A stretch of 64,000 nucleotides of DNA. Origin: Promethearchaeota archaeon (GTDB lineage Archaea; Asgardarchaeota; Lokiarchaeia; Sigyniarchaeales; SOKP01). Of this stretch, positions 37,496 through 42,468 are shown in pieces. Within the stretch, counting starts at the first letter, position 1. Each line of letters opens with the position of its first letter. The stretch lies in the NCBI GenBank assembly GCA_019058445.1, contig JAHPZA010000006.1, positions 320,001 to 384,000 of the forward strand. Direction: 5' to 3'. A program made the translations under genes and the position numbers. Below the pieces are notes generated by a model. It saw nothing but the letters and a program-made list of their open reading frames with translations. It was not told the DNA's origin and searched no databases.

Positions 37496-38440
37496 ATGCC
37501 ATTCAAATCGGATTTACAAGATTCTAACTCATCATTAGTCATCGCACTTGACAAAGTGGGTATTGTTGATTTGGAAAAGAAAGTTGAGATAGTACAAGAA
37601 AATAAGCGCTACTCCTTTTATCCGAAAATTTCTGCTCTCATTAATCTTCCAGCTCAACAACGGGGTATTCATATGTCTCGAACTTCTGAAACAATTGAAG
37701 AGATTATAAATGACGTAATATTCAGACCTACACCTACGATTGAACGTGTTGGCGATAGAATAGTAAAAAAATTGTTAGAAAAACACCCCTATACCACAAA
37801 AGCAGAAGTCAAATTAAAGGGAAGGATTGTTGTTCAAGTCAGAGAAAGCGAACAAAGAACCATCCAAAAATCGTATGATATAAGTTCTTATGTACTAGCA
37901 GAGAAAAAGAAATCTGGCGTTATTGATTTTAACTATTTCATAGGAGCGAGCGCAGTAGGGATTACTGTTTGTCCCTGTGCAAAAGAAATGTCTCAAGAAT
38001 ATGCTGAAGAAATTATTAAATCAAGAAAGGATATTAATATTTCCGAAGAAGACATTAAAAAATTGATAAATATACTTCCTTTCTCCTCTCATAATCAAAG
38101 GTCAAAAGGCACTATTGTTGTACAAATAAAAGATCTAAATAGTCATATAGTTGATGTGTTAGATATTATTGATATTATAGAGGAATCTATGAGCGGACGA
38201 ATTCAATCTGTTTTAAAAAGACCGGAGGAAGCTGAGTTAGTTAGAAGTGCCCATTTAAAGCCTTTATTCTCCGAAGATGTAATTCGAGAAATGGCAAAAA
38301 ATTTTATAACAAGGGACTTTCCAAATTTAGAAGATAATTTTAAAATTAGCTTTAAAATAGAAAGTTATGAATCCATTCACCCTCATAATGTATATGCGGA
38401 ATTAACCACTACATTAGGACATTTAAGAAAACGAATTTAA
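37496..38440 (+). CDS. mptA: GTP cyclohydrolase IV / FolE2 family
   Basis: DLQ, RGIHMSR, GITVCPCA, HNQR, LKRPEE, P.FSED, ESIHPHN. Confidence 0.92.
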   Translation: MPFKSDLQDSNSSLVIALDKVGIVDLEKKVEIVQENKRYSFYPKISALINLPAQQRGIHMSRTSETIEEIINDVIFRPTPTIERVGDRIVKKLLEKHPYTTKAEVKLKGRIVVQVRESEQRTIQKSYDISSYVLAEKKKSGVIDFNYFIGASAVGITVCPCAKEMSQEYAEEIIKSRKDINISEEDIKKLINILPFSSHNQRSKGTIVVQIKDLNSHIVDVLDIIDIIEESMSGRIQSVLKRPEEAELVRSAHLKPLFSEDVIREMAKNFITRDFPNLEDNFKISFKIESYESIHPHNVYAELTTTLGHLRKRI

Positions 38441-38666
38441 ACAGCTATTTTCGAAAATCGTATTTTTTTTAAATATTTTTATTAAATTTATTTTTTTCTT
38501 CTATTCTAATATTATAAAAAAAGCTATGTTATAATTCCTTTAATTTCAGTTTATCAAAGATATCAATCAACTTTCTAATAGGAATATAAAATAAATTCGA
38601 GATTTTAGAGATATGATATCCATTTTCTTCGAATTTTAATAATATATAAGCCTCATTCTAAAGTCA

Positions 38667-40259
38667 TTAAAAATGGCATTCTCTTTTCACATGACTCTCA
38701 GTGGATTCGAGAATTTTTCTCATTAACTTTAAAACTAGTTCATTCTTAATATCTTTTAAAGATTCTTCATCCCATAAATTATTCATCTCATTAGGATCCT
38801 CTTTAAGGTTATATAATTCACCTTCATCACGAAAAATTGTAATTCTCCATTCATCAGTAATTAATGTCCTTGTTTTTTCCTTAATGAAATCATCGTCCAT
38901 TTCAATTAGCACATCATCATTAATCTCAGTATTTGGATTATGAATAATTGGAACCATACTTTTTCCTTGCATGAATTCTGGTATAGGGATTCCCACTAAT
39001 TCCAATATCGTTTCTGGAATATCAATTGAACTTACTAAAGATGAAGATACTGTATTTTTTACCCCATTTGGGATCTTCATTATAAAGGGAATATTAGTTA
39101 AAGTATTATATAAAAATGGACCTTTAAAGAAGAATCTATGCGCTCCTCCTAATTCACCATGATCTGTTGTATAAATTATCACAGTATTCTCTGCCAAACC
39201 TGTTTTTTCTAATACATCTAAAATTTCTCCAATTGCATCATCCACCATTTTTTCCATTCCATAACATGCGGCAATAACTCGCTTAGCATCCAATTCTGTT
39301 AAATCTTCTGCTTTTGGAAATACATTTGGTTGTGTTCCCTCAGTATTCACTGGTTTTGAATAGTGTCTTCTATTTATTAAAGTGCTATTTTCATGATTAT
39401 CATGAAATGTATCTGGAAGAATAACATCTTCTGGTTTATACATATCAAAATACTTTCCTGGGGGGGTGAAGGGGTGATGAGGATCGGGAAAACTACAAAA
39501 TAGAAAGAAATTATCTTTGGAAACTTTCCCTTCATTAAATCTATTCAAATAATCAATGACTCCCTCTTTAACAAACGTAGTAGAATAAAGTTCTTCTGGT
39601 ACATTGTGATTCCATACTTGAATCTTAATATTTGAACTATTTTCCGGTATCATTGATTTACCATATTTTCGTAGAATTTCCCGATAAGTATCTTCAGGTT
39701 CTATTCCCAATTTAAGTTGTAAATTCTCGTCCAAATTCACTTTGGTTACTACCCATTCAAGAAAGTCGGGATGCCCACAATAAATTCCATGTCCCGATAC
39801 AATTTTAAATTCCTCCAATCCAAAATAAATCTCATGATCAGAGAGATTTTTATAATATTTAGGAACAGCAAATTCTTGACTTTTAAGGTTCTTAGTAACA
39901 CGCTTCTTACCAAAACGCTTCTTCTGAATTACGCCGAAATAATTTAAATGAATCTTTCCAAAATTCGCAGTGTGATACCCGTTTGATCTTAAAAGATCTA
40001 CGAATGTTTTAGTATCTTGTGGTAAATTTCTCCCATTTGTATTAACTCCATGAACCGAAGGATATTGTCCTGTAAAAATAGTACTCCTGTTAGGCATACA
40101 GATAGGATTATTACAATAAAAATTGGTAAATTTAATTCCTTCTTTTGCAATTTTATCAATATTAGAAGTCTGCAATACTAAATTGTCATTATAGCAGCTT
40201 AAATGATCCTTTCGCTGCATGTCAGTAATAATAAATAAAAAATTCAATTTTTCGTTCAT
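38667..40259 (-). CDS. Cys-type sulfatase
   Basis: FIITD.QR.D, CMPNR..IFTG (CxPxR), GKIHL, DPHHPF, DHGE. Confidence 0.92.
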   Translation of the reverse strand: MNEKLNFLFIITDMQRKDHLSCYNDNLVLQTSNIDKIAKEGIKFTNFYCNNPICMPNRSTIFTGQYPSVHGVNTNGRNLPQDTKTFVDLLRSNGYHTANFGKIHLNYFGVIQKKRFGKKRVTKNLKSQEFAVPKYYKNLSDHEIYFGLEEFKIVSGHGIYCGHPDFLEWVVTKVNLDENLQLKLGIEPEDTYREILRKYGKSMIPENSSNIKIQVWNHNVPEELYSTTFVKEGVIDYLNRFNEGKVSKDNFFLFCSFPDPHHPFTPPGKYFDMYKPEDVILPDTFHDNHENSTLINRRHYSKPVNTEGTQPNVFPKAEDLTELDAKRVIAACYGMEKMVDDAIGEILDVLEKTGLAENTVIIYTTDHGELGGAHRFFFKGPFLYNTLTNIPFIMKIPNGVKNTVSSSLVSSIDIPETILELVGIPIPEFMQGKSMVPIIHNPNTEINDDVLIEMDDDFIKEKTRTLITDEWRITIFRDEGELYNLKEDPNEMNNLWDEESLKDIKNELVLKLMRKILESTESHVKRECHF

Positions 40260-41825: not shown

Positions 41826-42357
41826 TTATGATTTCTTCTAAATAAACTTGTTAATTTACTTATTTTTATATATTTAAAATTTATGAAAACTCTCATATTA
41901 TTAAAACTCTTAATTAATGAGAATAATGTTAAGAATAAAAGATATTTTTTAAATATTTCCGTAAATGGGAGGTTATTTTTTAAATAAATTTATTTTTTTA
42001 CCCGTAAAAAATTACGGTAATAAAATTCATGAATTAGATTTTATTATATAATATTGTTCATAATATCCTACTTCGTAAAATATGTTTCGATTACTAATTG
42101 TTATAATATTAGTTAAAGCAAATTAATACTATTTTTTTTATAATTTTATATTTTTATAGACCTAATTGTTTCAATTGGTTTTAAATTTCCTCTACTTTAT
42201 CCGTTTAAGTAGATTGCGATTATTCAAAACTTATTTACTTAGGAGGAATAAAAATTATTTCTGTTTCATTTTGCAATATGATTTTAAACAAATTTTGATC
42301 AGAAAAAATTTAAAAATTTGTCTACAATTTTTAAGAATATTCAGTATAATAATACAT

Positions 42358-42468
42358 ATGCAAATAGTTTTTAAAATTGAGAGCTGTGAATCTATTCATC
42401 ATCATGATGTCTATGCTGAATTAAGTACTACAATAGGAGAGCTAAAAAAAAAATTAAAACTAATTTAA
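42358..42468 (+). pseudogene. mptA: 3' remnant of mptA
   Basis: FKIESCESIHHHDVYAELSTTIG versus the mptA C-terminus FKIESYESIHPHNVYAELTTTLG; 56/69 nt identical (42370-42438 vs 38351-38419). Confidence 0.88.

Follow-up and report, generated by a model that had tools for sequence, protein, structure and literature searches.

A 64,000-nucleotide stretch of a Promethearchaeia (Loki) metagenome-assembled genome (MAG), called the window below (G000:C6:320001-384000; genome G000 of 4.6 Mb in 10 contigs, 92.6% complete), contains a variable junction between mptA, the gene of GTP cyclohydrolase MptA, and a conserved nucleotidyltransferase-like gene (NT). Our analysis suggests that this junction has probably taken up DNA from related Lokiarchaeia at least twice, each time without an integrase, by illegitimate recombination that was one-sided and anchored in homologous sequence. 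An earlier reading of the window from its letters (the original prediction) had noticed a second copy of the mptA 3' end here and attributed it to a cargo islet. The features of the junction are as follows (window coordinates):

37496..38440, plus strand: mptA, GTP cyclohydrolase MptA, the intact left anchor (TIGR00294, 268 bits; cut-off 220)
38345..38440, plus strand: copy A, the attached mptA 3' end, of the lineage's own type (78/93 nt identical to the nearest relatives, L031 and L132)
38667..40259, minus strand: sulfatase S1, an extra copy (PF00884; CMPNR motif)
40314..41825, minus strand: sulfatase S2 (Pfam sulfatase; CTPSR motif)
42364..42468, plus strand: copy B, an orphan mptA 3' end of ~33 codons with its frame open (matching positions 270-301 of the TIGR00294 model)
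42586..43185, plus strand: histidine phosphatase, CobC-like (PF00300)
43331..44374, plus strand: NT, the right anchor, which directly follows mptA in empty sites
43349..43362, plus strand: 14-nt block in NT codons 7-11, where the sequence switches from the cassette type (L267) to the own type (L132), the putative right crossover

The repeat is real and not due to chance. As originally described, 38351-38419 and 42370-42438 are identical at 56 of 69 nt with 7 synonymous codon differences, at an offset of 4019 (68/90 and 70/99 over longer spans), and the local score of 77 compares with 35 for the highest of 200 codon shuffles. The start had been placed at the ESIHPH motif; in fact the repeat begins at ~38345/42364, 6-8 codons ahead of this motif, and the homology between the two copies ends abruptly at ~42362. 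In an alignment with the Neisseria enzyme this motif falls on ESIH 243-246, which are active-site residues; mptA, of which the genome holds one full copy, must therefore keep one whole end. Copy B carries three changes (Y>C, P>H, N>D) absent from its nearest match and from the nearest relatives, and is most likely functionless; a 36-codon open reading frame (ORF) from ATG 42358, at the same place, is probably accidental.

The two bracketed sulfatase genes were correctly recognized, both belonging to Pfam sulfatase families and having an intact CxPxR motif. The absence of an integrase from the bracketed interval was also borne out: the two tyrosine recombinases (PF00589) of the whole genome lie elsewhere, at C9:114618 and C6:27026, serine recombinases not having been searched for genome-wide. 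The proposed limits of the islet hold only in that the repeat brackets the sulfatases, since the inserted DNA spans 38441-43348, from the mptA stop codon to NT, reaching beyond the repeat to include the histidine phosphatase, with which the orphan end appears to form a separate unit. Misassembly had been named as an alternative. Logan contigs from SRR14802574, probably the same sample assembled differently, match the window at 100% over 27496-39225 and 41150-52468, with 39226-41149, inside the sulfatases, uncovered; both mptA junctions are therefore reproduced by a separate assembly.

The junction is variable among relatives. Of 151 distinct mptA loci surveyed, 80 extend to NT, and the gap between the two genes is <150 nt in 23 of these, 150-800 nt in 9, 7.7-8.3 kb in 47, and 3.8 kb in L031. 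L132 (90% amino acid identity) and L135 are empty, with a gap of 23 nt, and the gap of L031, the nearest genome, holds three other genes; relatives thus carry no cargo or different cargo downstream of mptA, as anticipated. A profile search found no second mptA end in the 151 loci, and a full second mptA paralogue at this position, the other alternative named beforehand, was absent from all of them.

On sequence evidence, orphan end B belongs to a second cassette, composed of an mptA end, the histidine phosphatase and the start of NT and present in other lineages too. In contig L263, mptA codons 267-end are followed by an intact phosphatase and NT, an arrangement colinear with window positions 42362-43699 at 80% identity; copy B matches the phosphatase-linked mptA end of L263 at 66/75 core nt, with a ratio of nonsynonymous to synonymous divergence (dN/dS) of 0.31. 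Synonymous difference between the window and L263 is 0.32 for the end, 0.36 for the phosphatase and 0.62 for NT, so that the unit moved after the hosts had split; vertical inheritance of an old remnant by both is disfavoured, as the end and the phosphatase are much less diverged synonymously than NT. A second contig, L267, is 94.5% identical over 42459-43404, its NT diverging after ~codon 10 and having a one-codon deletion common to another subgroup of the genus. NT of the window is a mosaic, the first codons following L267 and those from codon 7 onward following L132, and the switch at 43349-43362 probably marks a crossover. The left joins differ, falling at mptA codon 281 in the window, near the stop codon in L267, and at codon 267 in L263; the L267 cassette adjoins an mptA end that the host apparently retained. 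The phosphatase of the window is probably a pseudogene, with GCA where a 96% identical copy has GTG and the next start codon only after the RHG motif; its differences from L267 are near-neutral (dN/dS 0.77). A frameshift was rejected as the defect, L267 showing that a start codon was lost.

Several further observations concern this cassette. In L263:1-60, an inverted piece of the neighbouring amidohydrolase gene is fused in frame to mptA codon 267, the join sitting in a short stretch common to the two genes; either a genomic inversion or a library chimera could have produced it. In L267:57-95, ~40 nt look like the 3' end, inverted, of a gene that relatives have 8 kb upstream of mptA, a short and possibly chance similarity. 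Broken phosphatase copies occur at unrelated loci of another genus (L212:9235-10071 in G025 and L213:1930-2561 in G032), that of G025 being followed by an internal 144-nt NT fragment 83% like the NT of the window.

The C-terminus that matches close relatives is the attached one: copy A is identical to L031 and L132 at 78/93 nt and copy B at 70/93 nt, and in a tree of mptA ends (93 columns) A groups with these two at 97/92, B falling outside. The original proposal of acquired cargo at a protein-coding target is upheld; replacement of the native mptA end by a foreign one together with the sulfatase islet finds no support here. The proportion of synonymous differences (pS) between A and B is 0.64 and dN/dS is 0.14, and B resembles L263 and other genera more closely than it does A. 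The two copies appear to have diverged as working alleles of separate lineages, which makes decay of a local duplicate unlikely.

In the mechanism that we favour, incoming DNA would pair with the conserved flanking gene on one side and cross over there, presumably by means of the host RadA, and its other end would be joined at a non-homologous point, leaving a truncated second allele of the gene end beside the cargo. One type of cassette would have carried the sulfatases, and another the phosphatase flanked by an mptA 3' end and the initial NT codons, with the crossover in NT codons 7-11; copy B would be the allele of the latter. Two serial events probably occurred at mptA-NT, and B may have arrived as a passenger of the phosphatase cassette, have been laid over an older remnant, or have been installed on mptA and then displaced. 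Joins may fall inside gene ends because, where operons are tightly packed, joining further out would harm the neighbouring gene, and the gene itself would survive only with one whole end attached. Homology-facilitated illegitimate recombination (HFIR) usually deletes recipient DNA. Two of its hallmarks were found here, namely a homologous crossover on one side (the NT mosaic and ribD, below) and an abrupt non-homologous join of variable position, and of the two mechanisms originally offered homology-facilitated recombination describes the junction best. The attL/attR-like one fails, as there is no integrase and no fixed identical core, and the join points vary.

A second case was found 2 kb upstream, at ribD:

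36153..36226, minus strand: native 5' end of ribD, displaced; ~25 codons, adjoining the amidohydrolase stop codon (66/78 nt identical to both nearest relatives)
34535..36049, minus strand: cargo gene encoding a DUF4379 zinc-finger repeat protein (related cargo in L040 and L134)
34377..34450, minus strand: foreign replacement for the 5' end, attached to the intact ribD (33781-34449; 55-58/78 nt identical to nearest relatives)

Here a foreign start is attached to a native gene body, which fits a homologous crossover on one side. The site is reproduced at 100% in the Logan contigs, and related cargo, with a remnant of its own, occupies the same ribD site in L040 and L134. The C-terminus of the DUF4379 protein looks nuclease-like by eye, and homing at this site is a possibility.

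The intergenic DNA of the genome was then searched for short, diverged duplicates of coding sequence, with crude gene calling and with short remnants such as that of L040 missed. In the first pass, 37 gene-end remnants were oriented outward round cargo and 5 inward; after removal of three outward matches that were neighbouring paralogues, the counts were 34 and 4 (p=6e-7). The 34 outward remnants comprise 25 3' ends and 9 5' ends and bracket 99 kb (2% of the genome). The first-pass remnants had medians of 101 nt in length, 82% in identity and 2 kb in separation, 26 of the 37 anchors had no paralogue, and differences were distributed over codon positions as 203/133/448, third positions dominating. 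Pooled dN/dS of the remnants is 0.16, and stops or indels occur in 16 of 37. Anchors include leuS, aroA, ribD and adk (adenylate kinase, read from sequence), and no shared sequence was seen by eye at the 37 joins. Of the cargo, 30 genes were scanned; they form a mixed set (NosD, SNF2 helicase, Ras GTPase, histidine kinase, MFS, LRR, LAGLIDADG), and no integrase or transposase was found among them. Corresponding sites in congeners were compared at 8 regions, of which 5 were empty (leuS and four others), the rest having partly shared or different cargo. In G003 (L432, G003:C227:4090-6731) two adk 3' remnants are stacked, each behind a cargo gene, which is serial displacement in a congener.

Among the controls, other Asgard samples (1.56 Mb) yielded 3 cases against an expectation of 11.5 (P=0.003), mptA neighbourhoods (1.93 Mb) yielded 2, and E. 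coli (0.8 Mb) yielded one, which is a pair of paralogues, all of these samples being small; remnant density in G000 is ~4 times that of the other Asgard samples. As a positive control, the scan recovers icd/icdC of E. coli. Where the two copies could be distinguished, the remnant was the native-like one at three sites (ribD, 85 vs 71; C2:89937, 96 vs 90; adk, 88 vs 83) and the foreign one at mptA. The original picture of a displaced native gene end fits ribD and two other sites; at mptA the original order of events holds only if the phosphatase unit came first and was then displaced by DNA of a near relative.

Two sites found in G000 have peculiarities of their own. At L333:5206-7278 (G000:C6:704205-706280) a LAGLIDADG-like cargo gene lies between a gene and its 3' remnant. 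At L318:9555-10244 (G000:C10:621051-621743) the anchor is only the C-terminal third of acetyl-CoA synthetase and may itself be split or a fragment.

Taken genome-wide, these data raise the possibility, to which we give a little less than an even chance, that integrase-free integration anchored at gene ends is the main way in which this lineage of Lokiarchaeia acquires and relocates genes, the DNA coming from relatives 15-30% diverged, housekeeping genes serving as landing sites and ~34 datable scars remaining. Several points weigh against the proposed uptake, locally or genome-wide. First, approximately unbiased (AU) tests on the 93-nt mptA tail are not significant (p 0.05-0.24), and pS of the tail is based on ~18 sites only. 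Second, no intact mptA-phosphatase-NT donor was seen among the compared sequences, the mptA end of L263 being cut off and L267 starting 10 codons before the stop, and both are contigs of 1.1-1.4 kb with no assigned host. Third, at most of the other sites the native and foreign copies are tied. Fourth, DprA and ComEC, which would bear on a route of DNA entry, were not found in the 92.6% complete genome. Finally, HFIR has been called rare (PMC5361080). NucS was likewise not found in the genome and MutS is present, which gives no mechanistic lead.

The same mechanism could have operated in the order implied by the original prediction, the phosphatase cassette first cleanly replacing the mptA end, and end A with the sulfatases later arriving from a near relative and pushing B downstream. 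This order, compatible with the two-uptake reading, is possible but rather doubtful. It would explain why the repeat exactly brackets the sulfatases, it agrees with the native-like remnants at the three other callable sites, and the divergence of B from the L263 end, largely under selection, implies that both were once on working genes. It requires, however, an extra event, the entry of the sulfatases into the donor; no mptA body with B-type sequence attached was seen, the mptA body of the window contains no B-type patch, and the L267 phosphatase cassette lies beside an apparently retained host end.

A single crossover integrating a small circle that bears cargo and a gene end, as modelled for displacement of rhs C-termini (PMC2935791), is an unlikely alternative in spite of predicting outward geometry, variable remnant length and stacking. 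Copy B runs on into the phosphatase as in L263, so that the crossover was not within the repeat; moreover, remnants examined by thirds show no clear hybrid switch, and for single-copy genes it is not obvious where circles would come from.

A chimeric assembly of co-occurring Loki strains is very improbable. The genome is a MAG, its remnant density exceeds that of the other sampled genomes, and only 2 of the 34 sites were compared with other contigs, all of which would suit a chimera; but both mptA junctions and the ribD site recur at 100% in that comparison, stops and indels are frequent in remnants, the ribD arrangement is present in two other assemblies, and G003 has its adk remnants. Even less credit is due to an integrase-driven attL/attR element bringing a replacement gene end, with its integrase lost or acting in trans: e14 of E. 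coli at icd/icdC gives the same end product, and the scan detects it, but this explanation is largely refuted by the absence of an integrase from the interval and from the 30 cargo genes, with only two in the genome, by dozens of unrelated targets with no common core seen and copies 73-81% alike, and by related cassettes joining at different points. Local tandem duplication of mptA followed by decay and later insertion of the sulfatases is disfavoured to the same degree, since the private amino acid changes of B and a monophyly of A and B that is not formally rejected (p-AU 0.077) stand against a dN/dS of 0.14 at pS 0.64, which is not that of sister copies diverging neutrally, against the greater similarity of B to other lineages, and against the lack of a tandem second mptA in the surveyed loci.

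Among known systems, the closest is HFIR, demonstrated experimentally in transformable bacteria (Acinetobacter, Streptococcus, Pseudomonas; PMC5361080, PMC2884548) and proposed for type VI secretion system (T6SS) arrays (PMC5361080, PMC11751169), with a related circle model for rhs tips (PMC2935791). The likeness consists in one homologous anchor, one non-homologous join, variable join points and no integrase; here, unlike there, the process would have acted in an archaeon, at ~34 sites, and left behind a second allele of the gene end. The rhs loci (PMC2935791) and T6SS effector-immunity arrays (PMC5361080, PMC11751169) also have variable-length orphan ends downstream of an intact gene, serial stacking, and exchange limited to homologues. 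There, however, what a toxin family exchanges is the tip, its adaptive payload, whereas here the payload is the cargo in between, and the anchors (mptA, ribD, aroA, leuS and others) are not polymorphic toxins but unrelated single-copy housekeeping genes, used at both 5' and 3' ends. The feature works like HFIR-type tip displacement and is not a member of an rhs or T6SS array.

Neisseria minimal mobile elements (PMC3787668) and haloarchaeal homeocassettes (PMC11078007) vary in gene content between a pair of conserved neighbours, within which the recombination that moves this content takes place, and in this they fit the mptA-NT junction and the mosaic start of NT. An in-register double crossover, however, leaves no orphan end such as 42364-42468, and the lineages exchanging DNA here are 15-25% apart. 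E. coli e14 at icd, with its icdC remnant, resembles the present case in that a diverged duplicate of the 3' end of a metabolic gene brackets foreign DNA, but the integrase, excisionase and fixed site of e14 have no counterpart here. The feature thus fails as an integrase island, as an rhs/T6SS array and as a clean minimal mobile element.

Asgard archaea have large genomes in which transferred and duplicated genes abound. Mechanisms of gene gain described in Asgard archaea so far involve integrases, transposases and viruses (PMC8813620, PMC11529989), and the word recombination does not occur in a 2026 phylogenomic study of how their genes are transferred and duplicated (PMC13247210). The literature searched, which misses most subscription journals, contained no account of such remnants across whole genomes of archaea. 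If the genome-wide reading is true, it would amount to a route so far undescribed, acting across the genome, for the gene gain and apparent duplication reported in Asgard archaea, and the remnants would record donor alleles. Scars of this kind are simple to search for and datable, show where the insertion took place, and hold the allele of the donor or recipient. The genome-wide pattern on housekeeping genes weighs more than the mptA site, which is modest alone.

The sulfatases are Loki genes shifted to a new site rather than exotic imports. Their homologues in congeners (77-81%) are on separate contigs, away from mptA. S1 has a resident orthologue elsewhere in the genome (G000:C6:284378-285952), and S1 at mptA is the extra copy because the G003 homologue is syntenic with that other copy; this suggests that some apparent paralogues, such as S1, may be extra copies obtained from relatives. 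The nearest homologues of S2 (77-80% amino acid identity) are in sulfatase/hydrolase/MFS clusters and not at mptA. The intergenic region 41826-42357 has no homologue among the compared loci or in the genome, and a 100-codon open frame within it looks spurious.

Three other observations were made around mptA. MAG DZ2M.219 has two full mptA genes on separate contigs (L032 and L107; 84% and 73% identical to that of the window), with a listed contamination of 9%. In L036:10983-18739, the mptA-NT gap is filled by a 7.9 kb block that, by inspection, contains E1-, E2- and MPN-like genes and three ubiquitin-like genes; 46 other loci have a gap of the same size, and there is no such block at this place in the window or its nearest relatives. 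Downstream of NT, the window contains a pair of small paralogous ORFs (44788-44973 and 45438-45626; ~61 amino acids, 74% alike in nucleotides), whose distribution near the locus in relatives is patchy.

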